The translations under genes and the position numbers were made by a program. The notes under the pieces are model-generated. The model was not told the DNA's origin and did not search any database. It saw only the letters and a list, made by a program, of their open reading frames with translations. This document shows positions 6,914 to 59,106 of a stretch of DNA of 64,000 bases, one piece after another. Each line of letters begins with the position of its first letter. Within the stretch, counting starts at the first letter, position 1. The stretch comes from Candidatus Omnitrophota bacterium (GTDB taxonomy: Bacteria > Omnitrophota > Gorgyraeia > Tantalellales > Tantalellaceae): assembly GCA_034723315.1 (NCBI GenBank), contig JAYEOV010000035.1, positions 8,329 to 72,328 of the forward strand. The letters are read 5' to 3'.

Positions 6914-6955
6914 CGAAAAGAAATTGCTCCAGCGGCTTTAACAATTCGCCAGAGG

Positions 6956-7003
6956 CCATTTCATAACCCCGTTAGAAAATAATTATTCTAACGGGGCGAA
7001 CGG
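6956..7003. repeat. Mini/solo copy of MITE terminal sequence (CCATTTCATAACCCCGTT ... AACGGGGCGAACGG hairpin)
   Basis: Matches the left TIR plus an inverted copy of the CCGTTCG segment of the element family seen at 26489, 33403, 42657, 48573. Confidence 0.4.
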
Positions 7004-7025: not shown

Positions 7026-7553
7026 TTGTATCCTGCTCAAATTAATGATAAATTTGTATACATGAAGAACATATCATGGGGCAAAATAACCCTTGTAAGT
7101 ATAATTGCACTTACCGCGCATATAACCTGCTGTCTTTTCAATACACAGTTCGCAAAAATCACAATAGATTACTTTGCTTTTATAACAGGAATATTCTTAG
7201 TGACCGAAGGACTTTACAAGATATCCAGATCAAAAGCCCCTTTTTTCCCGGACCAGTTCCTGAGAGGTTTCCGGGTCGTGATCGGCTTCTGGATCTTCAC
7301 GATACATCTCTTTCAATTTATGAAGTACCGGGTTTTCTCCGCGCAGATAGCTGAAATTACAATAGATTATAAAGATTACTTTCCTTTTTTGGCAGGAATA
7401 ATTTTAGTAGCGGATGGTCTTTACAGGATATCCAGATCAAAAGCCCTTTTTTTCCCGGACCAGTTCCTGAGGATCATCCGCATTGTCATCGGCACATGTC
7501 TTTTCACAATACACCTTTTGCAATTCATGCACAGCGGCGCAACTTACTTTTAA
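7026..7553 (+). CDS. Hypothetical membrane protein with internal tandem duplication (2 x ~85 aa, 4 TM)
   Basis: Two repeats: ITIDYFAFITGIFLVTEGLYKISRSKAPFFPDQFLR... and ITIDYKDYFPFLAGIILVADGLYRISRSKALFFPDQFLR...; also visible at DNA level (7230-7265 vs 7435-7470). Confidence 0.4.
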   Translation: MYPAQINDKFVYMKNISWGKITLVSIIALTAHITCCLFNTQFAKITIDYFAFITGIFLVTEGLYKISRSKAPFFPDQFLRGFRVVIGFWIFTIHLFQFMKYRVFSAQIAEITIDYKDYFPFLAGIILVADGLYRISRSKALFFPDQFLRIIRIVIGTCLFTIHLLQFMHSGATYF

Positions 7554-9768: not shown

Positions 9769-12700
9769 TTACGCGCAGATAGTTAGAATTGTATCCTGAA
9801 GATGATGTGTATCCTCGATATCATCCACGATCGGCGGGCAACTGTCAAAATCGGAGAAGAGCTTCTTGATGAGTTCTTCAAGGTTTTCATTTGTCGTGTT
9901 AATGATAATGTCGAATCGTTCGCCCGAAGTCAACCGTTCTTTAAGCTCGTCCGCGTCTCTGGCAGTGACGATATCACCTTTGAATCCTATAACCTTGAGT
10001 TTTCTTATCCCTTCTTCAAAATCGCTTCCATATACCAGGGCCACCTTATTGGCCGAGGCTATCTGCAGTTCCAGGGCTTTCTCATTTCTGGGAAGACTCA
10101 CTTTTAACGCTTCTTTTATATGACAAAATTTTTCATCCATGCGCATCGTTTTCGACATTATCCCTGAGATCAGGCCTTCATCTTCCAGCTGCACAAACCG
10201 TTCATCACCTACCGCATGGCCGGTGGAAATAAGGATCGGGAACTTATGGCCTCTTTCCCGGACTTTTTTCGTCAATATCAAGCCGTCAATAATATCACTT
10301 CCCCTGGCCGGCGGCATGCTCACGTCAAATATGGCAAGGTGGAACTTTAACCCCGCTTTTTCCGCCTCTTCTATCAGATCAAAGGCTTCCTGACCATTCA
10401 CGGCCAGCCAGACATTACAGCCTTCCTCCTCAAGCATGCTTTTAAACTGGTCTCTCTGGAGAAGCTCATCGTCAGCAACGATAATATTCGGCCTGTCTTT
10501 TACGATCTCCTCCGGCTTCCCGTGCAATTCTTCTTCTTCTTCTTCCATCTTAACCGGGACTCGTCTTTTACCCGGCTCAGCTTCCGCCTGCCGCAGATAA
10601 GGAATAAACATCCTGACCGCGGAACCGTCCTTCTCATTGTCAACCGTTATCCTTCCGGCAAGATACGTCAGTATCCTGTGAGCAAGCGCCAGTGAAATAT
10701 TTTTATTTTTCTCCCATTTAAGAACTTCTGCTCCCTTTTCCCCGGCTCCGAGCTCTACCCTTTCCAACTGGCTCTCAGTAAACCGGCAGTAATTATTTCT
10801 GAAAGAAACAATTACTTCTCCGCTTCTTCTGTTACGCTCGAGTTTTATGCTTAATCGTTTTTCCTGCGGATCCAGTCCCTCAACCGGGACCTCGTTAGTT
10901 TCCATCCCAAGGGTCAGGATGTTATATAATGCGAATTTAAAGGCCGCTTCGTCGGCCATGATGAAAATATCCTCTTCCGGCCGGTATAATGTCTCGACTT
11001 CATCAAAGGTGATCGTATATTGCGGGAAAAACCTTTTTGATTTCTTGAATGCAGACGCGATATCCTTAAGGACTTTTGCCACTTCTACCTGCCCCGGCTT
11101 TTTCTCAAAGCTGTCTCCTGCCGGCAGCAGAAGGCGCCCGTCGTCGATTCTTTCTTGTGTCGTGTGGAAACCTGTATATATCTTCTCAATATATTGCCTT
11201 AACTTTTCATTATCAGATCCGGCTGTTTCTTTTATAAGCTTTTCAATCGACGACAACATACCTACCATATTTATCTCTATGATCCTGAGCGTTTCAGCCG
11301 GGGCAACATTTTTTAACATAGCCTGCACCTGCCTTACCGACTCTGCCAAACGAGGCTCATGTAAAGCGGTATCCAGGTCAATATCTTTCATTATGTTCTC
11401 TACCTGTTCCATCAGGTTTTTCACTTTAATGGCCAGGACCGGATCAACGCTCTCCATTGCGGTCTGCATTTGTTTTACCAGGATCATCGCATCTTTAGCC
11501 TGGAGAAGATCAGTCGGGTCCTTGAGGATAATTGTCGGTATATTCTGCATCATCCTTATCATGTTTACTGCCTCATCCATCTGTCCGCTGATCAATTTGC
11601 ACTTTGCCAGGATATCCTCAGGCAGGTCCGGCATAAAAGTCATTATCAATTCAAGATAACCTCTACTTCCGGCTATCGCGTTGTTAAGGTCATGCCACAA
11701 GCTGCCGTATATGTTGTCCTGCGCTTCAGACGCACGGAGTTTTATCCTGTCCAGTCGACGTTCAACCAGAGGGAATTCCATTGTAAATGTCGTCCCGTGC
11801 CCTAACTGACTTTTCGCTTCCGCTGTGCCGTTATGCTCCTGGGCGACATCCCTGACGACAACAAGCCCAAGGCCGGTCCCCATACCGTCATCCCTTTTCG
11901 TATAAAAGGGTTCCCAGATATTTTGCAGGTCTTTTGCCGTGATCCCGCATCCTGTATCTCTAAAAGATACACGCATTACGTCCCTGCCTTTCTCATCCTT
12001 TGTTTTTTCCGTACCGAGAGTCAATTCCTTTGTCTTCGAGTCTCTCATAAACGATACAGCATTCATGATAATGTTAAGGAAAGCCTGTCTTAACCTGCTT
12101 CTATTGGCAATGACCACCTGCCGGTGTTCGCTTAATTCCAGTTTTACCGTTATACCCATACTCTCTATCATTGTCTTTCTCATCTCCAGGACATCCAGCA
12201 GGACTTCTTCGACGGAACAGGGGAGGTTCCCCAAATCCGGCGATCTCGCGAAGCCCAGAAACCTGTCCGTGATATCGGCAATACGCTCTGCTTCCTGTTC
12301 AATAATCGCCAGCGTCCGGATAATCTCTTCCTCTTCCACAAATCCCCCTTTGTACAGGCGGGTGAGGATCCCGTCAACAATATTAATTATGTTAGACGTG
12401 GGATTGTTTATCTCGTGAGTCAGCGCCGCTGTGTTTTCTCCGATCGCTGTAAGCCTTTCAGCCTGGACCAGGAGCGCTGTCTTTTCCTCCAATTTCGCAT
12501 AGGCGTTCTTCAGGGCGTTTTCAGCCTGTCTCCGCTTTGTAATATCCTGCATCTGCACTAAAAAACCAGACGGAACGCCGTTTTCCACGGCCAGGGGCGT
12601 TACCCTGTAATCTATGAAGACCCTCCCTGACTTTGCCTCTCCGGACAATCCGGCTTTTTTAGGCTTATCAAAATCAATTTCGTTTTCGAAGCTGATACAT

Positions 12701-15405
12701 TCTCCTTTACGAACCCTGTCTTTTTCCGTACCTATGATAATATCAAGAAAATCGAAGAGATTTAATACTTCTCTTTCTTTCCCAAAATCGGCAATGCCGT
12801 TTTCTTCTAAATACGCTCTGTCTACATATAGAAACGCCTTGTTCACATAGGTCAAGCGGCCGTCAGAATCAAAACGGGCGATCCCGATCGGCGATTCTTC
12901 GGAAATTTCCCTGAATTTCTGCTCGCTCTCCCTCAACGCTATCGCCGCGTCTCTGCGCTCTTCTTCCCGTGTAACCGCTTCCGCAAGGATCCCGAAAAGT
13001 TTCATATCACTATCATCAAGTTCAACACTTTCCTTGTATAGCACACAGAGGCTTCCAACGCGCTGCCCGGCGCTATATACCGGAAATCCGATATAGGTCC
13101 TGAACCCGTACTTCGCCACATTGGGATCGGTTTTGGAATAAGCGGTCTCTTTTACATTTCTAACAATATAAGGAAGCCCTCTAAGGCCTTTTTTGATAAC
13201 ATCATAACAGATATGGCCATCCGGTTTATCAACCGGATTATAGTCAGGTGGAGTCTCCCACTGACCTACCGAGCATAACATGCCGCCTTCCATCCTGTTA
13301 TACAAAGCACAGTCTCCGTTTAAAAATTCCCCGCAGGTCCTGGTAAGTATTTGAATATTCTCGTCATAATCGGTCCCGAGCCTGAGAAGTGCGTCATTCA
13401 GCATTAAAATACGTTCTTCTGCCAGCTTGAGCTCTGTGATGTCGCTACCCACACACAGGATCCCGGAGATGTTCCCCTTGGCATCAAAAATCGGCTTATT
13501 GGTCCATGCGATGTAGACCAGTTCGCCATCCTTACGCAAATTTGCGGTCACGTTATTGACATAATACTCGGGGTATTTTCTTATATTCAGGATCATTTCC
13601 TCGAGGTCCTGTCTGGATTTTTTTGTTTCAGGCATGATCGTGCCGATCATATTCCGGCCGAGCAATTCTTTCTCCGAATAGCCCAGAAACATCCGGGTGA
13701 ACTCATTCGCGAAAGTAATTTCTCCGTTCAAGTTCATCCTCAAAATAATGCTGTTGGCGTTCTGGACCAGATCGCGGTATTTAAGTTCACTTTCCCTGAG
13801 CCTTTCTTCCGCCTGCCTACGTGCCATCCCTCTTGAAATAATATCGCCTGCCACACGGAGGATCCTCGCGTCTTTATCACACCAATCGCGGTGCTTTTCT
13901 GTGTCTTCAATACCCATATATCCGACAAGTTCTCCATCTATCGAATACAGAGGCACAATAATAAGAGAAAAAACATTCTGATCCCGCATACTCTCCTTTT
14001 CCGCGGTCGCATCCTCCGGAAGATCATCGGTGCCCCGAATAATTATGTTTTCATTGTTCCTGAGTTTTTTCATCAACCACGGGTATATGGAAGAAACCTG
14101 ATCCTTACGGTTCTCTATCTGCGGTTCTGTATCCGGATCGCACCACTCATATGTGTTATCCATTATGCTGCCGTTTTCCCGGAAGCGAAAAATATACGCC
14201 CTATTCACGTCGACCGCTCTCCCTATAATTTTGAGGATCTGATCAAGGTCAGGGATGGGGCCTTCAACGAACATACTTGATACCTGCGCAAGAGCTTTCT
14301 CTATGTCAAGACGATATGTTAATTCTTCCTCAACCTGACGCTGATCGGCAGAATAGTCTCTGGTGGTTATTTTTTCGGTAAGATCGATAAATTCCGAGAC
14401 CCTGGCCTCATTGAGCAGATTCATCTCTCTTCCTGTCAGGTTCATCTCAGAAGGGAAAGTGCCGGGAAGGTCTATTTTTCTATCGCTAAAGCATTGAACA
14501 AAACGCTTGAATATATCCTGGAACAGGTTAGACTCCTCGTGTGTAAACCCGGCTTTTGCGAATATTTCATGAACAATTGTATCGGCATTTAAATATACCA
14601 GTTCATTTGGAAGATAAATGCCGCGGCCGCCCGCATGCGGCTCTTCTAACCTGTATTCCTTCCTCGTCTCAGTGATGAGCATAAGCTGGCTAATGCTGAC
14701 AAGTTCCCTGAAGTCTCTGGAAAGCCCGGTAGATACAATATCAAGGAACGCGTAAATACAGGAAAGGGGAAGGCCATAATTTTTCTCTGTTACAATCATA
14801 CACTTGCCGGCAAGTATGGCTTCCCGGATCTTCTCGTCATGTTTTTTTTCGCTCTCCGCAGCCATGGATATCGCGCGACCTTCCAGTCTTTCGGCATACT
14901 TTAACTGTTGGAGCTTTTCGAGAAGATCCTTTTGATTTTTTTCACGTTGCGTCAAAAACGTGATCTTATATTGAGGATCCGTACCGGGACTATCGGTTAT
15001 ACAACACCAGTAATCAGCCACCCTTTCTACTGTTCCAAATGTACACGGAACCAGGCGTAATCCAGCTTTTTTGCAATTGACCGCCCGGCTGAAATAAAAC
15101 CTTATCCTAATGTCTTCTATGTTGAAATTTATGCCCAATGATGAAGCGGAGTGGTCGCCCCATTCATTCATTACGTCTATTTTTTTATTACGCATACCTG
15201 AAACAAGGACATATTCGAGTAACGCGATATCTTTGATCTCCTTGTTAAGCAAGGGAAGAAATATGGATTGCGGCGCTATGTTTCTACCAGCAAATCTCAT
15301 GGCATAAGCCGGACTTACGCTTGTTGAAGTAATCAATAATAAAACCGTAATTATTATACTGGTTGCCTTTATTATTAAGCTATTTTTTCTTTTAAACAAT
15401 ATCAT
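9769..15405 (-). CDS. Giant hybrid sensor histidine kinase (1878 aa): N-terminal unknown domain, GAF-PAS-GAF-PAS, HisKA+HATPase, second HisKA-like+HATPase, receiver, C-terminal pseudo-receiver-like domain
   Basis: H-box THEINNPTSNI; G-boxes DTGCGI...GTGLGLVVV; second H-box SLWHDLNNAIAGSRGYLEL and second ATPase-like core; REC domain IIVADDELL...FDVSMPP... Confidence 0.85.
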   Translation of the reverse strand: MILFKRKNSLIIKATSIIITVLLLITSTSVSPAYAMRFAGRNIAPQSIFLPLLNKEIKDIALLEYVLVSGMRNKKIDVMNEWGDHSASSLGINFNIEDIRIRFYFSRAVNCKKAGLRLVPCTFGTVERVADYWCCITDSPGTDPQYKITFLTQREKNQKDLLEKLQQLKYAERLEGRAISMAAESEKKHDEKIREAILAGKCMIVTEKNYGLPLSCIYAFLDIVSTGLSRDFRELVSISQLMLITETRKEYRLEEPHAGGRGIYLPNELVYLNADTIVHEIFAKAGFTHEESNLFQDIFKRFVQCFSDRKIDLPGTFPSEMNLTGREMNLLNEARVSEFIDLTEKITTRDYSADQRQVEEELTYRLDIEKALAQVSSMFVEGPIPDLDQILKIIGRAVDVNRAYIFRFRENGSIMDNTYEWCDPDTEPQIENRKDQVSSIYPWLMKKLRNNENIIIRGTDDLPEDATAEKESMRDQNVFSLIIVPLYSIDGELVGYMGIEDTEKHRDWCDKDARILRVAGDIISRGMARRQAEERLRESELKYRDLVQNANSIILRMNLNGEITFANEFTRMFLGYSEKELLGRNMIGTIMPETKKSRQDLEEMILNIRKYPEYYVNNVTANLRKDGELVYIAWTNKPIFDAKGNISGILCVGSDITELKLAEERILMLNDALLRLGTDYDENIQILTRTCGEFLNGDCALYNRMEGGMLCSVGQWETPPDYNPVDKPDGHICYDVIKKGLRGLPYIVRNVKETAYSKTDPNVAKYGFRTYIGFPVYSAGQRVGSLCVLYKESVELDDSDMKLFGILAEAVTREEERRDAAIALRESEQKFREISEESPIGIARFDSDGRLTYVNKAFLYVDRAYLEENGIADFGKEREVLNLFDFLDIIIGTEKDRVRKGECISFENEIDFDKPKKAGLSGEAKSGRVFIDYRVTPLAVENGVPSGFLVQMQDITKRRQAENALKNAYAKLEEKTALLVQAERLTAIGENTAALTHEINNPTSNIINIVDGILTRLYKGGFVEEEEIIRTLAIIEQEAERIADITDRFLGFARSPDLGNLPCSVEEVLLDVLEMRKTMIESMGITVKLELSEHRQVVIANRSRLRQAFLNIIMNAVSFMRDSKTKELTLGTEKTKDEKGRDVMRVSFRDTGCGITAKDLQNIWEPFYTKRDDGMGTGLGLVVVRDVAQEHNGTAEAKSQLGHGTTFTMEFPLVERRLDRIKLRASEAQDNIYGSLWHDLNNAIAGSRGYLELIMTFMPDLPEDILAKCKLISGQMDEAVNMIRMMQNIPTIILKDPTDLLQAKDAMILVKQMQTAMESVDPVLAIKVKNLMEQVENIMKDIDLDTALHEPRLAESVRQVQAMLKNVAPAETLRIIEINMVGMLSSIEKLIKETAGSDNEKLRQYIEKIYTGFHTTQERIDDGRLLLPAGDSFEKKPGQVEVAKVLKDIASAFKKSKRFFPQYTITFDEVETLYRPEEDIFIMADEAAFKFALYNILTLGMETNEVPVEGLDPQEKRLSIKLERNRRSGEVIVSFRNNYCRFTESQLERVELGAGEKGAEVLKWEKNKNISLALAHRILTYLAGRITVDNEKDGSAVRMFIPYLRQAEAEPGKRRVPVKMEEEEEELHGKPEEIVKDRPNIIVADDELLQRDQFKSMLEEEGCNVWLAVNGQEAFDLIEEAEKAGLKFHLAIFDVSMPPARGSDIIDGLILTKKVRERGHKFPILISTGHAVGDERFVQLEDEGLISGIMSKTMRMDEKFCHIKEALKVSLPRNEKALELQIASANKVALVYGSDFEEGIRKLKVIGFKGDIVTARDADELKERLTSGERFDIIINTTNENLEELIKKLFSDFDSCPPIVDDIEDTHHLQDTILTICA

Positions 15406-15891: not shown

Positions 15892-16181
15892 CATTATTGA
15901 ACACTCTCAAATTGGTCCAAAACTTTATGCAAAACGCGGAAGTCGGGTTAACAATCTCTTACCGTAATGAAGTAATGTTAAATTTACAATAGATAGAATA
16001 ATCCCCTTGTATATTAATAATGTTAAGGTATAGTTAATATGTTGATATTAAATGTATTTGGCTTTGTAATTTTTTACAAATTTATTAAAGGTTTGCTTAG
16101 AAGAAGAAAACAGCCTTGAAGATTTATTTTTTGGTTTTTAAAAAGTTTTTGAAAATGCCGAAACTAAAAAGGCGAATTACG

Positions 16182-17420
16182 ATGAACAAAACAAGAACAA
16201 AGAACAATGGGTTTGCCATGGCGGTCATGGCAGTAATGGTTGTCCTGGTCATGGCATGGGTGGTGATCATAACGCCTGTCCCGCGAGCGCATGCCGACGA
16301 ATGGGTAACGCGGCAAATATCGGATAATACGTATATTGACGCCGAGCCATCTCTTTATAACGGCACCATAGCCTGGGTGCACCATATACCCGCGGGAGAC
16401 TGGCAGCAACGTCATATCTACTACTGGGACGGGACCTCAACCACGCAGATAACGCCGTATGAGAAGTCGACCTACGAAGAGCCATCTCTTTATAACGGCA
16501 AGATAGCTTGGAGGGATGGTTATGTCTACTACTGGGACGGGACCTCAACCACGCAGATGCCGATTCCGGGGGGTGGTCAGCACTCCCCGTCACTTTATAA
16601 CGGCAAGATAGCCTACATTGTCGGAGGCGGTGTATTTGATGTCCACTACTGGGACGGGGGTACGGCTACAAATATATCTAATAATACGGCTGGTACTTGG
16701 TCCGGGTCCCCATCACTTTATAACGGCACCATAGCCTGGCAAACCTGGCAGGATGGTGGTTACGGTATCAACTACTGGGACGGGGGTACGACTACACAGA
16801 TATCCGTTAGTGGCGCCAACCCGTCACTTTATAACGGGACGATAGCCTGGGCGGACAATGGTATCAACTACTGGGACGGGGGTACGACTACACAGATATC
16901 CGTTAGTGGCGCCAACCCGTCACTTTATAACGGGACGATAGCCTGGGCGGGCAATGGTATCAACTACTGGGACGGGGGTACGACTACACAGATATCAGGC
17001 AGTGGCACCAACCCGTCACTTTATAACGGCGATATAACCTGGCAAGGCTCGGATGGTAATGATGATGAGATCTTTTACGCGCGGCTGGCGTCGGCGTGGA
17101 TAGGTGACGCGATAGACTCACTCGGCCTGGCAGGATACACAGAAGCGGAGATACTTGATCTTGCGGACCTGTTCAGTGGTCAGACTTCCGGTCTGGTAAA
17201 CAGCATGGACTGGACATACCTGGCAGGGAACCTTCCGGGAGATACAGGGGGCGAGGTCTATGACATAGGAAACAGCTGGGAATATGACGGTAAATACTAT
17301 ATCAAGCTGGGGAGCGGGCTTGAAGGAACCGGAGTACCTGAGCTGCCGGCAGGCGCGATACCGTTTATCGGTGCGATCTTGTGTTTTGGATTAAGACGGT
17401 TAAGACGTTTTCACAAATAA
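16182..17420 (+). CDS. Tandem-repeat secreted protein with variant PEP-CTERM-like sorting tail
   Basis: Signal peptide; ~9 repeats of PSLYNG[TK]IAW...YWDG[TG]TTTQI; C-terminus VPELPAGAIPFIGAILCFGLRRLRR (PEL-P + TM + basic cluster). Start at the internal Met (MNKTRTKNNGFAMAVMAV) instead of track 16116. Confidence 0.6.
   Translation: MNKTRTKNNGFAMAVMAVMVVLVMAWVVIITPVPRAHADEWVTRQISDNTYIDAEPSLYNGTIAWVHHIPAGDWQQRHIYYWDGTSTTQITPYEKSTYEEPSLYNGKIAWRDGYVYYWDGTSTTQMPIPGGGQHSPSLYNGKIAYIVGGGVFDVHYWDGGTATNISNNTAGTWSGSPSLYNGTIAWQTWQDGGYGINYWDGGTTTQISVSGANPSLYNGTIAWADNGINYWDGGTTTQISVSGANPSLYNGTIAWAGNGINYWDGGTTTQISGSGTNPSLYNGDITWQGSDGNDDEIFYARLASAWIGDAIDSLGLAGYTEAEILDLADLFSGQTSGLVNSMDWTYLAGNLPGDTGGEVYDIGNSWEYDGKYYIKLGSGLEGTGVPELPAGAIPFIGAILCFGLRRLRRFHK
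16764..17045 (+). repeat. 3 x 96-bp near-identical tandem DNA repeats inside the repeat-protein gene
   Basis: Units 16764..16859 and 16860..16955 differ at ~1 position; the third unit is diverged. Confidence 0.7.
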
Positions 17421-17462
17421 AACGGGAAAAACCAAAAGGATGAAAAATCCCCGTTCAAAAAG

Positions 17463-17492
17463 AAACCCGGGTAAGTGCCCGGGTTTCTTTTT
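17463..17492 (+). terminator. Rho-independent terminator
   Basis: AAACCCGGGTAAGTGCCCGGGTTTCTTTTT stem-loop plus T-run immediately after the repeat-protein gene. Confidence 0.6.
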
Positions 17493-17658
17493 GAAACGTT
17501 ATACCTCCCCTTCCCTTTTCTCCGGGACCCCTTCAGGTCCTTGCTCTACTCAGGGTAAACTCTGGCCCTTCCTACGGCTTCCGGAGCACCTTGAATACGT
17601 CTATTTCGCCTGAATCAAGCACAAAATACCCAAAATACGCACGGACTCCTGCCAGAAT

Positions 17659-26488: not shown

Positions 26489-26606
26489 TAGAACCCATTT
26501 CATAACCCCGTTCGTTACGAGGCTGAGCGAAAAGGCCATTGACAAGGCCTGAGGGGCAAAATGCCCGGAAACGTAGCCGTTGCGCTACGTTGATGATATT
26601 TTGTCC
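26489..26606 (+). mobile_element. MITE-like element copy (left TIR + core, right end truncated)
   Basis: AGAACCCATTTCATAACCCCGTTCGTTACGAGGCTGAGCGAAAAGGCCATTGACAAGGCCTGAGGGGCAAAATGCCCGGAAACGTAGCC...GCTACGTTGA core shared with the 48573 copy. Confidence 0.55.
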
Positions 26607-26650
26607 GGATAGCAGGGAACCTTTTCACGGTCCCGGAGTAGGGAGCAAAA

Positions 26651-27805
26651 ATGAAAACGGCTGAAATTGCCGAAAAATTCGGACGATATTTTTCCGACTC
26701 GCCGCGGCTTTTCTCCGCCCCCGGACGCGTCAACCTGATCGGGGAGCATACCGATTATAATGACGGTTTCGTTTTTCCCATGGCGCTCGAGTACTGCGTT
26801 GTGGTCGCTGTTTCCCGCCGTTCCGACAGGCAGGTAAATATCCGATCCGAAAACATGGGCGATTCGATCTCTTTCTCCCTGGATGATAATCTCAAGAAAA
26901 GAAACCACTGGAGCGATTACACCGCGGGAGTGGCCCGCATGCTCGAGCTGGAGGGTATACGGCTGCCCGGCGCGGATATGCTGGTTGACAGTTCCGTGCC
27001 TCTCGGCGCGGGACTGAGCTCTTCGGCCGCTATCGAGATCTCATCAGCGCTGGCTTTCCTGAGCACCGCGGACCAGGAGATGAAGCCGGCCGATCTGGCC
27101 TTGCTGGGGCAGCGCGCGGAGAATCAGTTCGTCGGCATGAACTGCGGTATAATGGACCAGTTTATTTCCGTGCACGGAAAAAAGGACCATGCTCTATTTC
27201 TGGACTGCAGGTCACTTAGCTACAGGCAGGTCCCGCTGCCCTCCGGCAAGGTAAAGATCGTTATCTGCAATACAATGGTTAAACATGAGCTGGGCGCTTC
27301 GGAATACAACAAAAGGCGGACTGAATGCGAGGAAGGTGTCCGCATCCTCAAGGAGTATTACCCGGAGGTGCGGGCCCTGCGAGATGTTACTATAGAGCAG
27401 TTCAGGGAAGCGGAGAACGCCCTGCCGGATGTAGTGAGAAAACGCTGCCGGCATGTCATCTCTGAGAACCAGCGGGTCCTTGATTCCCTGGATGCTCTCC
27501 AGGGGGACGATCTTGATCGTTTCGGCCATTTGATGGACGGCTCTCATGACAGCCTTAAGGCTGATTATGAAGTAAGCTGCCCGGAACTTGATCGCATGGT
27601 TGAAATAGCCCGGCGACTGCCTGGCTGCCTGGGAGGACGGATGACAGGCGGCGGTTTTGGCGGCTGTACGGTCAACCTTGTCGTAAAAGACGTGGTAGAT
27701 GATTTTTGTTCACAGATCAGCGGCTCCTATGAAGAAGCGGCCGGTATCAGACCGCAGATATATATCTCCACTCCTTTTCCGGGAGCGCATGAGATCGTCA
27801 GATAA
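26651..27805 (+). CDS. galK: Galactokinase
   Basis: PGRVNLIGEHTDYN signature, GAGLSSSAA ATP-binding motif, GHMP kinase. Confidence 0.85.
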   Translation: MKTAEIAEKFGRYFSDSPRLFSAPGRVNLIGEHTDYNDGFVFPMALEYCVVVAVSRRSDRQVNIRSENMGDSISFSLDDNLKKRNHWSDYTAGVARMLELEGIRLPGADMLVDSSVPLGAGLSSSAAIEISSALAFLSTADQEMKPADLALLGQRAENQFVGMNCGIMDQFISVHGKKDHALFLDCRSLSYRQVPLPSGKVKIVICNTMVKHELGASEYNKRRTECEEGVRILKEYYPEVRALRDVTIEQFREAENALPDVVRKRCRHVISENQRVLDSLDALQGDDLDRFGHLMDGSHDSLKADYEVSCPELDRMVEIARRLPGCLGGRMTGGGFGGCTVNLVVKDVVDDFCSQISGSYEEAAGIRPQIYISTPFPGAHEIVR

Positions 27806-30023: not shown

Positions 30024-30101
30024 CCCCCGCCCATTTTTTAAAGAAGCCCTCTCAAATAAATTTGAGAGGGCTTCTTCATGAGATATAAAGACGACCGATC
30101 G

Positions 30102-30465: not shown

Positions 30466-30521
30466 GGGCTAAGCCCTATGGGGGCCCCTTTTTTTTTAAC
30501 CTGGTTAAATCTAACCAGGTT
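30466..30521. terminator. Terminator cluster
   Basis: GGGCTAAGCCC; GGGGGCCCC followed by T9; then AACCTGGTTAAATCTAACCAGGTT + A-run. Confidence 0.4.
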
Positions 30522-30546
30522 AAAAAAAGAAAACTAGTGTCTGTCC

Positions 30547-32110: not shown

Positions 32111-32236
32111 TTTTTCCTCCTTCTTTTTGTCTTTCTCAATTCTGTCCCTTCACTGCTGGATCCCCGCTTCCGCGGGGATTAAATTCGCATTATGATTTAC
32201 TCTCATTTCAATCGCGTAAATCATGTGCTCATTTAA

Positions 32237-32265: not shown

Positions 32266-32271
32266 CCTCTA

Positions 32272-32287
32272 TGAACCCATTTCATAA
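32272..32287. repeat. Solo MITE terminal inverted repeat (GAACCCATTTCATAAC)
   Basis: Identical to the left TIR of the element family; overlaps the stop codon of the anti-sigma gene. Confidence 0.45.
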
Positions 32288-32767
32288 CAAAAAATCCTCC
32301 ATCGGGATGCCTATATCCGTATAAGAGCCGTTCTCCCGGTCCCCGTTGTTTAGCGCGTCAATGAATGAGAGCTGTTCCTCAAGATACATGTTAAGCGAGG
32401 CCCTGTCGAAGAGGTACGTCCTGGCGACTAATGCCGCTATAACGATAAGTATGGATGCCGTCAGCACGGCGAACGCGGGTTTTCTCTCAGCAAGGATCTC
32501 CCGGAGGCGCTCTCTTAAACCGGAGAGCGGGCTCTCGGGCCGGTTCGCCTCAATGACGCCTTTTATGCCGTGCCAGGTCTCTTCAGGGGGCTGCAGGCGC
32601 TCCGCTCTCTTCAGTGGATCCACGGCTGCGTCACGGACGATCTGCAGCAACTCCCCGCAACGGGGACACGACCTTATGTGGTCTTCGACGACCTTCCTCT
32701 GACCGGGATCAAGTTCTCCGTCTATGTAGTCTGTCAGGATCATTTTCCGTATTTTTCCGCATTTCAT
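32282..32767 (-). CDS. Zinc-finger (zf-HC2) anti-sigma factor, membrane-spanning
   Basis: HIRSCPRCGELL motif near N-term, single TM helix, 4-nt overlap with the upstream ECF sigma gene. Confidence 0.6.
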   Translation of the reverse strand: MKCGKIRKMILTDYIDGELDPGQRKVVEDHIRSCPRCGELLQIVRDAAVDPLKRAERLQPPEETWHGIKGVIEANRPESPLSGLRERLREILAERKPAFAVLTASILIVIAALVARTYLFDRASLNMYLEEQLSFIDALNNGDRENGSYTDIGIPMEDFLL

Positions 32768-33363: not shown

Positions 33364-33402
33364 CCGGTAGTGCGTATTATATCATACGCACCCCGCTTTT
33401 CT

Positions 33403-33700
33403 AGAAGCCATTTCATAACCCGGTTCGTAACGAGGCTGAGCGAAAAAGCCTTTAGCCCTTCGACTCAGGCCCCGGCTTTAGCCGGGGCCTTCGCTCCCTT
33501 CGGCTTCGCTCAGGGCAAGCAGGATTCCGCCCCACCCGGGCGGTAAGGGTGGTGCCCCGGGTTTGCCGGGGGCTCCACAAAGCCTGAGCGGCAAAAAGCC
33601 CGGAAACGTAGCCCCAATCTGCTACGTTGAGGACTTTTTGCTGCGAAAACGCAGCTAACGGCTTTTGCAGCCAGCCGCAGTAGAACAGGGTTTTGTAGTT
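33403..33700 (+). mobile_element. MITE-like element, long variant (~300 bp) with GC-rich insert module
   Basis: Left TIR AGAAGCCATTTCATAACCCGGTTCGTAACGAGGCTGAGCGAAAAAGCC..., internal CCGGAAACGTAGCC...CTACGTTGA hairpin, right end TTTTGCAGCCAGCCGCAGTAGAACAGGGTT. Confidence 0.55.
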
Positions 33701-33715
33701 CGCAGTTACAGGGAG

Positions 33716-33976
33716 ATGACACACGAGATCTGGGAGGATAAGGATCGCACGAAATTGAGAGATAACCGGAAGGTTTTTAAACTGTTTCGCGAAGGGCTCG
33801 AGCCGCTCATACAGGAAGGAAGACTCGGGTGCGTGCTCCTGCAGTTCCCCTATTTTTTTCTGTCCAACCGGGATAATTTTGATTACCTTCAGAGATGCAG
33901 GGACAGTCTTGCCGGAGTAGATGCCGTAGTTGAATTCAGGAACAGGTCGTGGGTAAAGGAACGGACCTTCGAGTGA
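33716..33976 (+). pseudogene. DUF72 (YecE-like) family protein fragment
   Basis: Only the central/C-terminal LGCVLLQFPYFF ... AVVEFRNRSW region is present, ~85 aa of a ~250-aa family. It begins at the MITE edge and ends prematurely. Confidence 0.4.
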
Positions 33977-33980
33977 TAAG

Positions 33981-34088
33981 TAGAAGTTCTGGGGACACGC
34001 CTGTTATAGGCGATAAGCAGACACTACTGAAGTTCCGGGGACACGCTTGTTGTATATGCCTATTTTGCTCGCCCAAGCATGTCCCCGG
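33981..34088 (+). repeat. Structured ~110-bp repeat element (family 2), copy 1
   Basis: Contains 2 x GAAGTTC[TC]GGGGACACGCYTGTT plus inverted CATGTCCCCGG. About 80% identical to the reverse complement of 44792..44905. Confidence 0.5.
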
Positions 34089-34240
34089 AATATATTTTTA
34101 TACATAACCGATAACAGATAACCCATAACCGAGATACCCATAGCGAGCATACGTGCACAATACGAGATACCCAAAGCGAGCAAACACGCACCATACCCGG
34201 CACCCAAAACCAGACTTTGCGCCTGCTTCAACATCCACCC

Positions 34241-36394: not shown

Positions 36395-36565
36395 CAACAA
36401 ACTTCCCTGCAGCTTGCTGCGGGGAAGTTTACCCCGCACCGAACCGCATTGGGTTCGGGGTTCTCGTCCCGTACCCAAAGTGGTACGGGAGATTCCGCCC
36501 TACAAGTGGAATCCCGCAGAAAAAGGAGCCGCGGACTCAAGTCCGCGGGACTCCATCCGATCAAC
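36395..36565 (-). repeat. MITE-related internal module, inverted orientation, no recognisable TIRs
   Basis: GATTCCGCCCTACAAGTGGAATCCCGCAGAAAAAGGAGCCGCGGACTCAAGTCCGCGGGACTCC matches the reverse complement of the insert in copy 42657..42838. Strong hairpin GGAGCCGCGGACTCAAGTCCGCGGGACTCC. Confidence 0.45.
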
Positions 36566-41243: not shown

Positions 41244-41420
41244 CTTTTTTAATATTAATAATAGTTATATACACCTTAAATAATATTATTATAGCGGCAT
41301 TTTCAAGTTTGACCACTGTGGGCCGTAGACAATTGACAATAGGCCGATCAGCGGGTCTTTTCTATTTCAAGTATTTCTACCGGTACGCCCCAGGAATGAA
41401 AAAGGAACTTTCTTTCTAGG

Positions 41421-41467
41421 CCCCGTTCGTTACGAGGCTGAGCGAAAAGGCCATTGACAAGGCCTGA
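41421..41467 (+). repeat. MITE core fragment (CCCCGTTCGTTACGAGGCTGAGCGAAAAGGCCATTGACAAGGCCTGA)
   Basis: Identical to the core of copies at 26489 and 48573; no TIRs. Confidence 0.5.
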
Positions 41468-41483
41468 CACCAATAAAATATTA

Positions 41484-42606: not shown

Positions 42607-42656
42607 TAATCTTTTTTATAAAAAAGCCAATTTTAACCTTTATTATTATTGACTAT

Positions 42657-42838
42657 AACCCCGTTCGTTACGAGGCTGAGCGAAAAAAGCATTGACAAGG
42701 CCTGAGGGGTGGAGCCCCGCGGACTGAAGTCCACGGCTCCTTTTTCTGCGGGATCTCACCTGTAGGGCGAAATCCCGAAAACGCAGCCAATGGGTTTTGC
42801 AGCCAGCCGCAGTAAAACAGGGTTATGAAATGGGTTCT
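42657..42838 (+). mobile_element. MITE-like element copy (left TIR missing, right TIR intact)
   Basis: Core CCCCGTTCGTTACGAGGCTGAGCGAAAAAAGCATTGACAAGGCCTGAGG, GC-rich hairpin insert, right end TTTTGCAGCCAGCCGCAGTAAAACAGGGTTATGAAATGGGTTCT. Confidence 0.55.
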
Positions 42839-43069
42839 AAAGAAGAACTGGAGAATATCTTTGACAAGCACAAAAAACTTTACACGGCTAAAGAAAAACT
42901 GGGGCCTGGACTTGCGATCATACAGGATATTGTGAACATGCACAAAGGAAAAATCTGGGCCGAAAGCAACCCCAAGAAAGGTAACAGGTTTATTGTAGAA
43001 CTCCCCAAAAACATAGCATCAAAAAGCTGCGCCCTTAAGTGGATTCACTCCTCGTCGTCCACTTTATAA
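42830..43069 (+). pseudogene. Sensor histidine kinase C-terminal fragment (HATPase_c G2 box only)
   Basis: ...ELENIFDKHKKLYTAKEKLGPGLAIIQDIVNMHKGKIWAESNPKKGNRFIVELPKN; begins exactly at the ATG within the MITE right TIR; the rest of the kinase is absent. Confidence 0.5.
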
Positions 43070-44767: not shown

Positions 44768-44791
44768 CGTAAACCTCATTGTTTTGTTAAA

Positions 44792-44905
44792 AATATATTC
44801 TGGGGACATGCCTGGGCGAGCAAAATTAGCGTCTACAACAGGCGTGTCCCCGGAACTTCATCAATGCCATAGTGTCGTCTGCAACAAGCGTGTCCCCAGA
44901 ACTTC
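44792..44905 (-). repeat. Structured ~110-bp repeat element (family 2), copy 2 (inverted relative to copy 1)
   Basis: ATATATTCTGGGGACATGCCTGGGCGAGCAAAAT...CAACAGGCGTGTCCCCGGAACTTC...CAACAAGCGTGTCCCCAGAACTTC. Confidence 0.5.
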
Positions 44906-48029: not shown

Positions 48030-48581
48030 TTATATATTACGCCCCTCTTTTTTGGCCTTTATATATTCCGGAGGCACATTTTTTGCAAGGAATAGTTTTC
48101 CTTCCCTGTAGAACTTTATATCTTTAAGGGCCGCCTCTTTTGCCATTACCTCCAGAATAACCGGAGTCTGAGCATGCCGCATGCCGACCATGTATGCATC
48201 TTTCTCGTTCGAGCTGAGATGGACGAACTGCCTGCTCATGGGCTTCAGGCCTTCTGCAAGAATCTTTTCAAGATCTTCCGGAGATGTTCCGTGATAGAGA
48301 ACTTCCGGAGGTATTATACTTTCCGAGCCGGGCCGGACTTCGAGGGAATGGCCGTAAGTGGCCCTTATCTTTTTTGCCGAGACCTCAAAACGCCCTTTCG
48401 GTTCATTTTTTACGAGTTCAAAAAGGTCCTCTTCCTTAAACTTCCTGAATCTTTTCCTGAGGACCCGCAGGACATCGGCTAACGGGGCGTACCCACACCC
48501 GTCCAGCTCAAGATCCCAGCTGCCGGGATCATGACGAAGTATATATGACAGGAACTTGCTCAGTTTTATCTTAGAAACCAT
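48030..48581 (-). CDS. kptA: RNA 2'-phosphotransferase KptA/Tpt1
   Basis: SKFLSYILRHDPG...LDG.GYA N-terminus, YHGTS, VHLS motifs. The start codon lies inside the MITE left TIR. Confidence 0.75.
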   Translation of the reverse strand: MVSKIKLSKFLSYILRHDPGSWDLELDGCGYAPLADVLRVLRKRFRKFKEEDLFELVKNEPKGRFEVSAKKIRATYGHSLEVRPGSESIIPPEVLYHGTSPEDLEKILAEGLKPMSRQFVHLSSNEKDAYMVGMRHAQTPVILEVMAKEAALKDIKFYREGKLFLAKNVPPEYIKAKKEGRNI

Positions 48582-48752
48582 TTCATAACCCGGTTCGTAA
48601 CGAGGCTGAACGAAAAAGTCATTGACAAGGCCTGAGGGGCAAAATGCCCGGAAACGTAGCCGGTGCGCTACGTTGAGGACATTTTACCCCGAAAACGCAG
48701 TCAATGACTTTTGCAGCCAGCCGCAGTAGAACGGTGTTATGAAATGGTTTCT
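48573..48752 (+). mobile_element. Complete MITE-like element (180 bp) with 17-19-bp terminal inverted repeats
   Basis: Left AGAAACCATTTCATAACCC; right GGTGTTATGAAATGGTTTCT; core GGTTCGTAACGAGGCTGAACGAAAAAGTCATTGACAAGGCCTGAGGGGCAAAATGCCCGGAAACGTAGCCGGTGCGCTACGTTGA. Confidence 0.65.
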
Positions 48753-48921
48753 ATAGCTTGACACCTTGCCGTCTACCATCTGCTGGCCGCACGTCCTGCT
48801 ACATTGCTCGGCCAATTTTGTCAAATGTTGACAGGCTGACCAGGAATATAAATTTTCAAAAATTAGATATTAAAAATAAAGGACTTACAACAATAATCTA
48901 TTCGAAAAAGGCTATTCTCGG

Positions 48922-50445: not shown

Positions 50446-50505
50446 CCTATATCTCCACCCCGCGATGAATCAGGGGGGTCATGAATCAGGAACAATAATA
50501 TACCA

Positions 50506-50524
50506 GGGTTATAAAATTGGTTCT
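50506..50524. repeat. Degenerate solo MITE right TIR (GGGTTATAAAATTGGTTCT)
   Basis: 15/19 match to GGGTTATGAAATGGGTTCT; overlaps the stop of the malic enzyme gene. Confidence 0.3.
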
Positions 50525-51800
50525 AATAGGTCGGGATCTCCTTAAGCCCGGCCACACCTTCTTTTATGGCGGCTTCAGCTACCGCCTTTGACTCCCATTC
50601 TTTTATCCTGGGATCAAAAGGTGTCGGGATCAGATAATCCGGGGCGAACTCAAAGTTCCTGCCGTAAGCGGTCTTTACTTCTTCGGGAATATAACTCTCA
50701 CGCGCAAGAGCCGCAAGAGCCTCCGCTGCAGCTATTTTCATGCCCATAGTTATTTTTTTCGCCCGGACGTCAAGGGCCCCACGGAATATGAAGGGAAAGC
50801 CCAGAACGTTATTTATCTGGTTCGGAAAATCAGACCGCCCTGTCGCCAACACGTACTTTCGGCCTTTCATGCATTCTGCGACATCCTGCGGCATTATCTC
50901 AGGGACCGGGTTGGCCATCGCGAAAATGGCCGGATAATCGGACATCGAAAGGACCATCTCGGGCCTCACGCATCCAGCGACCGATACGCCGATGAAGACG
51001 TCCGCGCCGGCCATCGCGTCCGCAAGCGTCCTCTTTGCGGTATCAATCGCATGCGGTCTCTTATACTTATTGAGGTCCTCTCTGTTTTTACTCAGCACGC
51101 CTTTTGAATCACATAGAATACAATCCCTGACCCCGTCGGTTTTTATCATCTCGGCTATCCTCAGGCCCGCCGCCCCCGCGCCGTTTATCACTACTGAAAG
51201 GTCCCCCGCCTTCTTGCCGGAGAGCTTGCTATAGTTCTTGAGAGCCGCCAGGGTGATTATGGCTGTGCCCCACTGGTCATCGTGGAACACGGGTATGTCC
51301 AGCATCTCGTCAAGCCGGTCTTCTATCTCAAAACAGGCCGGTGCGGCGATATCTTCCAGATTGATCCCCCCGTACATGCCCGCTATTTTAACAGTAGTAT
51401 CTATGAACTTTTCTATATCCGTGCGCCCGTCCGGGCCCAGTACGCCTTCAAGAGGAACTGGCCAGCCGTCAACCCCGGCAAAGGCTTTGAAAAGAACGGC
51501 TTTACCTTCCATTACCGGTATGGACGGTCCGGGGCCGATATTTCCAAGACCCAGCACTGCCGTGCCGTCGGTAATTACAGCCACGAGATTCCCCTTCGCG
51601 GTCAGAGAATAAGCAAGGTTCTCGTCCCCTGCGATAGCTTCGCATATTTTTGAAACACCGGGAGTATAGGCCATGCTGAGATCTTTCTGATCGGTAAGTT
51701 TCTTCAGGAGTTCCAGACCGATCTTCCCCCCCATATGATATTCAAATACCTCTTCTTCTGTTATGATTAATTTATTCTGTTCCAAGTTGATACCTTTCAA
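50523..51800 (-). CDS. NAD(P)-dependent malic enzyme (short form)
   Basis: LSMAYTPGVSKICEAI, dinucleotide fold GAGAAGLRIA, 425 aa. Confidence 0.8.
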   Translation of the reverse strand: MKGINLEQNKLIITEEEVFEYHMGGKIGLELLKKLTDQKDLSMAYTPGVSKICEAIAGDENLAYSLTAKGNLVAVITDGTAVLGLGNIGPGPSIPVMEGKAVLFKAFAGVDGWPVPLEGVLGPDGRTDIEKFIDTTVKIAGMYGGINLEDIAAPACFEIEDRLDEMLDIPVFHDDQWGTAIITLAALKNYSKLSGKKAGDLSVVINGAGAAGLRIAEMIKTDGVRDCILCDSKGVLSKNREDLNKYKRPHAIDTAKRTLADAMAGADVFIGVSVAGCVRPEMVLSMSDYPAIFAMANPVPEIMPQDVAECMKGRKYVLATGRSDFPNQINNVLGFPFIFRGALDVRAKKITMGMKIAAAEALAALARESYIPEEVKTAYGRNFEFAPDYLIPTPFDPRIKEWESKAVAEAAIKEGVAGLKEIPTY

Positions 51801-58876: not shown

Positions 58877-58920
58877 CATTAGAGCTCCGGACGCAGTAGA
58901 ATGGAATTATGAAATGGCCT

Positions 58921-59106
58921 CTAGTTTATGACAGCCCTGTAAAGATCGGCGACTTGATTCCTGTAATACTTGTTATATATATCCCTGAGGATCTTTTTAC
59001 TCACTCGTTTGTTTAAATGGCTTACCTTCTTGCATGGTTGGTTCCTTTTCCCTTTAACCGACCCACTAAGATCGCAGGACTGTACATAGTTCTTCTTTTT
59101 TCTCAT
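58921..59106 (-). CDS. Small basic hypothetical protein
   Basis: 61 aa, Lys/Arg-rich; 4-nt overlap with the upstream AbrB-like gene. Confidence 0.3.
   Translation of the reverse strand: MRKKKNYVQSCDLSGSVKGKRNQPCKKVSHLNKRVSKKILRDIYNKYYRNQVADLYRAVIN

Follow-up and report, generated by a model that had tools for sequence, protein, structure and literature searches.

A probable family of miniature inverted-repeat transposable elements with IS5-family ends in a Candidatus Omnitrophota chromosome

The stretch of Candidatus Omnitrophota DNA analysed here (64,000 nucleotides (nt) of contig JAYEOV010000035.1, assembly GCA_034723315.1, positions 8,329 to 72,328 of the forward strand; hereafter the window, to which all coordinates refer) carries a short, hairpin-shaped repeat in or beside several of its genes, and the most complete copy lies across the annotated start of kptA, the gene for RNA 2'-phosphotransferase. 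What kind of element is it, and how did it come to lie there? We consider it very probable that these repeats are miniature inverted-repeat transposable elements, or MITEs, with the ends of IS5-family insertion sequences (ISs) of the IS427 type, moved in trans by the transposase of such an IS. A non-autonomous, MITE-like mobile element had already been proposed for this DNA (the original prediction), and the proposal is now supported by the IS-type terminal inverted repeats (TIRs) of the copies and by the reconstructed insertion into kptA.

The complete copy (48572..48753, + strand) consists of a 178-base pair (bp) body with a TA on either side and sits inside codon 4 (TAT) of kptA. With this length it falls within the size range of MITEs (non-coding, < ~500 bp), and it has no coding capacity of its own, stops being present in all six frames. 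A complete 180-bp copy with TIRs of 17-19 bp had been predicted at this place; the copy is indeed there and so are its TIRs, but their true length is 25 nt (48572-48596 versus 48729-48753, TAGAAACCATTTCATAACCCGGTTC / GAACGGTGTTATGAAATGGTTTCTA, 92% complementary). The end motif, TA-GAANCCATTTCATAACC, is common to nine loci of the window.

As annotated, kptA (48030..48581, − strand, 183 amino acids (aa), Pfam PF01885) starts with an ATG (48581-48579) that falls within the left TIR, and its product begins MVSKIKLSKF; this protein is identical to an NCBI entry from a Candidatus Omnitrophota MAG (metagenome-assembled genome). The original codons 1-3 and the T of codon 4 are found beyond the far side of the element, at 48754-48763. 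Deleting 48574-48753 (180 nt, made up of the 178-bp body and a single TA) yields MSSYKIKLSKFLSY; on the minus strand GTG TCA AGC TA is then joined to T AAG ATA AAA, and the N-terminus is restored to MSSYKIKLSKF (GTG TCA AGC TAT AAG = MSSYK). We compared this with 12 KptA homologues (58-69% identity, several from Omnitrophota MAGs), all of which start M-x-x-(Y or F)-(K, R or S)-x-(K or R)-L-S-K-F-L-S. No gap is needed to align the restored N-terminus with them (consensus MxxY[KR][IV][KR]LSKFLSY), and it shares the aromatic residue that stands at position 4 in 12/12 homologues; the protein as annotated aligns only with a gap and carries a serine there. Given this fit, 48572-48753 is a genuine insertion into the TA of codon 4 with a 2-bp TA target-site duplication, the very feature that the original prediction had proposed to look for. 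The TA duplication is thereby cleanly verified at the level of the sequence, and this is the only copy at which insertion and duplication can be verified.

Translation from the native kptA start would run 26 codons into the element and then stop, and the ATG of the TIR lies in the same frame as the native start, 60 codons downstream; from these reading frames it appears that kptA has been left dependent on the in-frame ATG that the TIR supplies. Owing to a sigma-70-like promoter match upstream of the native start (48873-48845, − strand), the kptA transcript probably includes the whole hairpin, in which case the start codon in use would be located within the TIR stem. The annotated KptA thus begins in a transposon end, with its true N-terminus 180 nt off, and annotation pipelines will mis-call such genes (KptA as well as the histidine-kinase and DUF72 fragments described below) unless the repeat family is masked. 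It also follows that the copies are not all intergenic or at gene boundaries, as had been claimed, given that this one lies within the kptA coding sequence and two others (33402 and 42655) adjoin truncated gene fragments.

To which transposon do the ends belong? The TIR pattern TAGAANCCATTTCATAACCC was searched in JGI metagenome contigs, and 52 contigs matched. At least eight of these have the partner TIR 838-928 bp away, i.e., they contain full-length, transposase-bearing ISs, and the window TIR is identical to the ends of these ISs over 19-20 nt. Each holds two overlapping open reading frames (ORFs), the first starting MARR..LTD..W..I.PLLP and the second having as its stop codon the TGA within the right TIR. 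The two overlap at an A6G slippery motif (seen in L092, L109, L104, L086, L094 and L135), which suggests that a programmed frameshift would join them. Both of the fused products tested (L109 and L092) contain the Pfam domains DUF4096 and DDE_Tnp_1, and that of L109 scores 252 bits against a cut-off of 110 with the NCBIfam model NF033580 ‘IS5 family transposase’ (IS5_3). The nearest named element to the partner-IS transposase is ISDds9, at ~47% aa identity. Relatives of the transposase are found across many phyla, one of them (P0196) annotated in a Candidatus Omnitrophica MAG. The contig that encodes it (MAG GCA_020430105.1) carries an 838-bp IS with the TIRs TAGAAGCCATCTCATAAATACC / GGTATTTATGAGATGGCTTCTA and the flanks C-TA...TA-G, and the window TIR is identical to its ends at 17/19 nt. 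A related TIR, TAGAACCCATCTCAAAAA, is present in an IS5-family element of Leptospira.

ISs of the IS427 group measure 832-865 bp, have two overlapping ORFs with a frameshift motif, and are bordered by direct repeats of 2 bp (PMC3281130). The TIR-sharing ISs agree with the description of this group (members are, for example, IS1248, ISPpa2 and ISPaes1; PMC3281130) in length, in the two ORFs with A6G, in DDE_Tnp_1 and in the 2-bp repeats, which are TA...TA in both the metagenome and the Omnitrophica ISs; their placement in the IS427 group is made by architecture and not by ISfinder comparison. Unlike these ISs, the window element has no transposase and is thus a derivative or a hitch-hiker. Since its TIRs are those of IS427-type ISs, we take the window elements to be MITEs with the ends of that IS type, and the statement that no mobile-element family name could be given to them is superseded. 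The flanks agree as well, as all of these metagenome ISs and MITEs have TA...TA flanks, mostly C-TA...TA-G, and two loci that hold the same IS at different sites (L086 and L127) have only the TA in common beyond its ends.

Most of the other TIR-matching contigs carry the same TIRs around non-coding interiors of 80-150 bp that belong to several unrelated types, some of them perfectly palindromic. Across loci L081-L132 we count at least eight distinct short interiors (80-150 bp) under one IS427-type TIR with TA flanks, and a single interior of ~80 bp recurs in about nine contigs (L082, L090, L097, L110, L111, L123, L128, L130 and L132). Tourist MITEs of eukaryotes are moved by PIF/Harbinger transposases, which are related to the IS5 family, and they form swarms that have nothing but the TIRs in common with the autonomous element. 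The metagenomes resemble that system in having many unrelated MITE interiors under one TIR type; PIF/Harbinger elements differ in belonging to eukaryotes, in a 3-bp duplication (TAA/TTA) and in their need for a second protein. One IS427-type TIR is thus common to many unrelated MITE interiors in environmental bacteria, much as Tourist and PIF are in eukaryotes. In the window, a hairpin at 32160-32179 (ATCCCCGC-TTCC-GCGGGGAT), which is separated by 93 nt from the solo end at 32273, resembles ATTCCCGC-TTTC-GCGGGAAT (L083, L088, L105 and L116), which sits beside the right TIR of another metagenomic MITE family with the same TIRs.

How many copies does the window hold? Five loci carry the core (26489, 33402, 41413, 42655 and 48572, with 47-180 nt of it) and four more are solo ends, so that the claim of a dense repeat family with at least eight loci in 64 kb, dispersed in the manner of MITEs, is borne out. 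An nhmmer profile search of the window returned exactly the five core loci (E 1e-16 to 1e-58) and no others, in agreement with the self-BLAST inventory. With 84-100% identity, the core is found again at 26489-26602, 33402-33450 plus 33577-33686, 41421-41467, and 42655-42709 plus 42774-42839; the copies diverge by 5-16%, the five core-bearing copies all point the same way along the chromosome, and the family totals ~1 kb or 1.6% of the window. The TIR 16-mer GAANCCATTTCATAAC has six exact occurrences, and 11 when up to three mismatches are allowed, compared with 2.6 ± 1.7 in shuffled sequence (0/100 shuffles reached 11). These counts support the solo ends at 6952, 32273, 50508 and 58906, and two further matches (23823 and 53368) are probably due to chance. 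An assembly artefact is ruled out, as the copies are diverged, their flanks differ and all lie on one contig. Nine of the loci listed in the original prediction stand; the locus at 36395 has neither TIR nor core and is not a member.

Besides the complete copy, the left TIR and core are intact at 26489..26660 (+), which is 92% identical to the copy at 48572 over 114 nt and has a decayed right arm. Its end coincides with the start codon of galK (26651). The right part (26603-26661) shows a weak collinearity with the right arm of the family (59/5000 shuffles reach its score), and this collinearity places the galK start at the position of the right-TIR ATG, preceded by a good GGGAG ribosome-binding site; the galK start codon may thus be a co-opted TIR start. 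The copy at 33402..33697 (+) is a long variant with left TIR and core, whose left arm is interrupted by a 121-nt GC-rich hairpin block (33456-33576). It adjoins an N-truncated DUF72 fragment (33665-33976, +), an internal piece covering profile positions 49-127 of 217, and its right TIR is missing rather than degenerate, the DUF72 coding sequence beginning at that place. Only a fragment of the core is left at 41413..41468 (+), 47 nt of which are 100% identical to 26506-26552.

The fifth core-bearing copy (42655..42839, +) has no left TIR, retains an intact right TIR that ends in TA, and carries a 65-nt GC-rich module (42710-42774) in place of the central hairpin. The ATG of its TIR opens a histidine-kinase fragment (42830-43069, +; HATPase_c positions 51-110 of 111) that is convergent with an OmpR-type regulator gene, and both the left TIR of the element and the remainder of the kinase gene are gone. 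This fragment and the DUF72 fragment would both be called as ORFs. The solo ends are all in + orientation. The left-type end at 6951..6975 (AGAGGCCATTTCATAACCCCGTT, E = 0.014) is followed by an unrelated hairpin and lies upstream of an HlyIII-family gene. The solo TIR at 32271..32290 (TATGAACCCATTTCATAAC) has the exact 16-mer, and the TGA of its motif TTATGA is the stop codon of an anti-sigma gene (32282-32767, −). A degenerate right-type end at 50504..50525 (CCAGGGTTATAAAATTGGTTC-TA, two mismatches to the 16-mer) overlaps, with its terminal C-TA, the TAG that ends the malic-enzyme gene, and a right end with sub-terminal sequence at 58887..58923 (CCGGACGCAGTAGAATGGAATTATGAAATGGCCTC-TA) matches the complete copy's right arm at 81% identity.

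Taken together, the element has all testable defining features of a prokaryotic MITE, and we infer that it was mobilised in trans. In the mechanism we propose, ~20-25-nt TIRs would enclose a non-coding, almost fully self-complementary interior, and the DDE transposase would be made by an autonomous IS elsewhere in the genome or in an ancestor; this IS427-type enzyme would bind the common TIRs and insert the element into a TA, frequently one that is part of CTAG, with duplication of this dinucleotide. The truncated copies beside gene fragments could then have arisen by later deletions or by recombination between copies, and the long hairpin would be a by-product of the element's origin, or would be kept by intrastrand templated repair, rather than serving an RNA function. 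The original prediction had also described the family as active or recently active. One copy with intact TIRs and a duplication agrees with this, but most of the others are truncated, the copies diverge by the percentages given above and the 64 kb contain no transposase; the family would rather seem to have transposed into or beside genes and later suffered deletions, with no obvious current burst.

Several observations weigh against this interpretation. Neither a transposase nor a remnant of one was found in the 64 kb by tblastn (all E > 0.1); the autonomous partner type that the original prediction had suggested looking for is known, with the same TIRs, from metagenomes. Both TIRs and a verifiable duplication are present in one copy only. 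The MITE core is absent from every other genome and metagenome searched, its copies being known from the window alone: an exact search of GTDB genomes and JGI metagenomes with the left-arm core GTTCGTWACGAGGCTGARCGAAAA gave zero matches, as did a search of viral contigs with the right arm. No related repeat is present at the PurL-anchored loci of the nearest Omnitrophota MAGs (74-78% aa identity), and the element has weak BLAST matches, of 66-69% identity, in a Nitrospiraceae locus (L023). Lastly, the hairpin arms of the copies at 48572 and 33402 show concerted changes, which would not be expected of a MITE in purely neutral decay, so that some pairing constraint or homogenising mechanism would have to act.

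The complete copy folds into one long imperfect hairpin with an RNA free energy (dG) of -86 kcal/mol on the + strand (z score -10) and -98 on the − strand (z score -14); its DNA dG is -50, and over these folds, with z scores of -9 to -14, 0/200 shuffles are as good. The fold check that had been recommended therefore returns a stable single hairpin. We compared the two copies that have both arms (48572, and 33402 minus its insertion), which gives an indication and not a test. Three compensatory pairs are seen in the MAFFT register and five in an ungapped register that places a single-base indel at the inner end of the stem (T:A to C:G, G:C to A:T, A:T to G:C, T:A to A:T and G:C to C:G), versus 0-1 in slid controls with the partners shifted by 1-3 columns. 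Such arm changes could result from selection for pairing, from templated repair of a quasi-palindrome, or from independent palindromisation of the founders of subfamilies.

The TIR could also be regarded as a portable start codon (ATG-AA-ATG-G), the interior as kept paired by selection and the GC-rich blocks as a second, independently mobile nested class, a combination that we judge unlikely. If it were true, the TIR would be the sole available start of kptA, possibly that of galK, and also the start of the histidine-kinase fragment, and the element would be a translational or RNA-stability switch, i.e., more than a decaying parasite.

It is likewise unlikely that the repeat serves in the first place as a structured RNA or a hairpin regulating in cis, i.e., that it is a domesticated MITE which stabilises transcripts, is a target of RNase III or gates translation by sequestering the start codon, and that this function explains its spread and conservation, as proposed for Correia, ERIC and REP. 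The very stable fold (z -10 to -14), the concerted double changes at paired positions between 48572 and 33402, the kptA start in the TIR stem (and possibly the galK start too) and a sigma-70-like match at 48873-48845 (−) that would transcribe through the element are all in its favour. The same covariation, however, comes from two copies, and templated repair of a quasi-palindrome gives this pattern without selection; most copies are truncated and cannot form the hairpin; the stabler strand is inconsistent (-99 versus -87 in one copy, -71 versus -72 in the other); and its orientation to the neighbouring gene varies, the + version lying upstream of galK (+) and the − version in kptA (−). A scan of the window against Rfam gave no match at the gathering thresholds, the best permissive match reaching 18 bits against a threshold of 38. 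Owing to the lack of an Rfam match, to the mixed orientation relative to genes and to the fact that the hairpin belongs as much to the DNA as to any RNA, an RNA reading gains no support, and the structured-RNA repeat that the original prediction had offered as its alternative fares no better.

Other types of transposon come out far worse. If the element were a MITE of the IS630/Tc1-mariner type that duplicates TA, as Correia and RUP do, and not related to IS5, the TA target-site duplication would be accounted for, and the size and overall hairpin shape of the window element recall those two families; such an origin is extremely improbable given that the 19-20-nt TIR identity is to ISs with DUF4096 and DDE_Tnp_1 (252 bits on the NCBIfam IS5 model), and that all same-end ISs whose ORFs or product were read are of IS5 type and none of IS630 type. 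We give hardly any credence either to a REPIN-like doublet of REP hairpins moved on single-stranded DNA by a RAYT (an IS200/IS605-like tyrosine/HUH enzyme). The shape of a long, imperfectly paired hairpin, the motif GTAG close to the right end (GCAGTAGAAC), the GC-rich REP-like stem-loops nested in two copies and the shared chromosomal orientation of the five core-bearing copies would all fit such a doublet; against it, the TIRs match a DDE IS, Pfam scans of the window ORFs found no RAYT gene, and for five out of five copies to point the same way the two-sided probability is no lower than 1/16. The element also has a 2-bp duplication, which the RAYT/IS200-type mechanism is not known to make. 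An integron attC array is ruled out, as housekeeping genes lie between the copies and these are spaced 1-8 kb apart.

MITEs with IS5-family ends thus remain the preferred explanation, and they may be set beside known systems. Correia elements (NEMIS) of Neisseria are MITEs of ~100-155 bp with long TIRs and a TA duplication, are dense in the vicinity of genes, are transcribed together with these as hairpins and can provide signals for expression; an IHF site, promoters and RNase III processing are among their features. The window element is like them in its TA duplication and hairpin shape, and unlike them in that its TIR, unrelated in sequence, belongs to an IS5-type transposon, and in its interior and host lineage. 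For MITEAba12 and the co-resident IS5-family element ISAba12 of Acinetobacter, mobilisation in trans was argued from common TIRs and from the length of the duplication (PMC6382973). The window family resembles this pair in being short and non-coding, in having the TIRs of a DDE-transposase IS, in lying in or beside genes and in carrying start codons in its ends. MITEAba12, however, is 113 bp long and AT-rich, with 9-bp duplications (PMC6382973), whereas the window family has ~180 bp, a 2-bp TA duplication, an almost fully palindromic sequence and GC-rich nested modules, and its partner IS type is known from metagenomes and, with near-identical ends, from an Omnitrophica MAG, not as a co-resident. 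We found no description of MITEs in Omnitrophota in the literature, and a 2024 survey of MITEs in NAR (PMC11602168) is without mention of IS5, IS427, Omnitrophota or hairpins. These elements leave the current understanding of MITEs unchanged and are an ordinary, well-documented example of a known element type.

The surroundings of the copies are those of an ordinary chromosomal stretch (46.8% G+C), with housekeeping genes across the window (purL, purF, guaA-like, icd, malic enzyme, galT, galK and trkH). The window PurL is 74-78% identical to PurL of Candidatus Omnitrophota MAGs and ~50% identical to all others. A very large hybrid sensor kinase of 1878 aa is encoded at 9769-15405 (−), with GAF, PAS, HisKA, HATPase and receiver domains.

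The excluded locus at 36395-36560 is an intergenic array of five hairpins (RNA dG -86 kcal/mol) without TIR or core. The right 65 nt of this array recur reversed in the copy at 42655 with 88% identity, i.e., the GC-rich hairpin module at 36491..36558 (−), though not a family member, is common to the centre of that copy. The 121-nt block of the copy at 33402 (33456-33576) is unrelated to this module. Such GC-rich stem-loop blocks may constitute a separate small repeat class.

A second repeat family is represented by two 118-nt copies with 83% identity (33983-34100, +, and 44788-44905, −), each of which contains a pair of GAAGTTCYGGGGACACGC boxes in direct orientation and, inverted, their partner GCATGTCCCCRGAATAT. 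The first of them starts 7 nt beyond the point at which the DUF72 fragment is cut off at its 3' end, and may for this reason represent a further mobile element. Repeats of other kinds are also present. Tandem 96-nt (32-codon) units with 83-99% identity, together with related units of 105-135 nt, occupy 16300-17070 within an ORF of 434 aa (16116-17420) that has no Pfam match, and a 157-nt direct repeat (7166-7322 and 7373-7529, 79-87% identity) lies within or beside the ORF at 7026-7553. Three near-perfect intergenic palindromes of 36-42 nt (90-95%; 17454-17495, 30041-30076 and 30491-30528) may be terminators.

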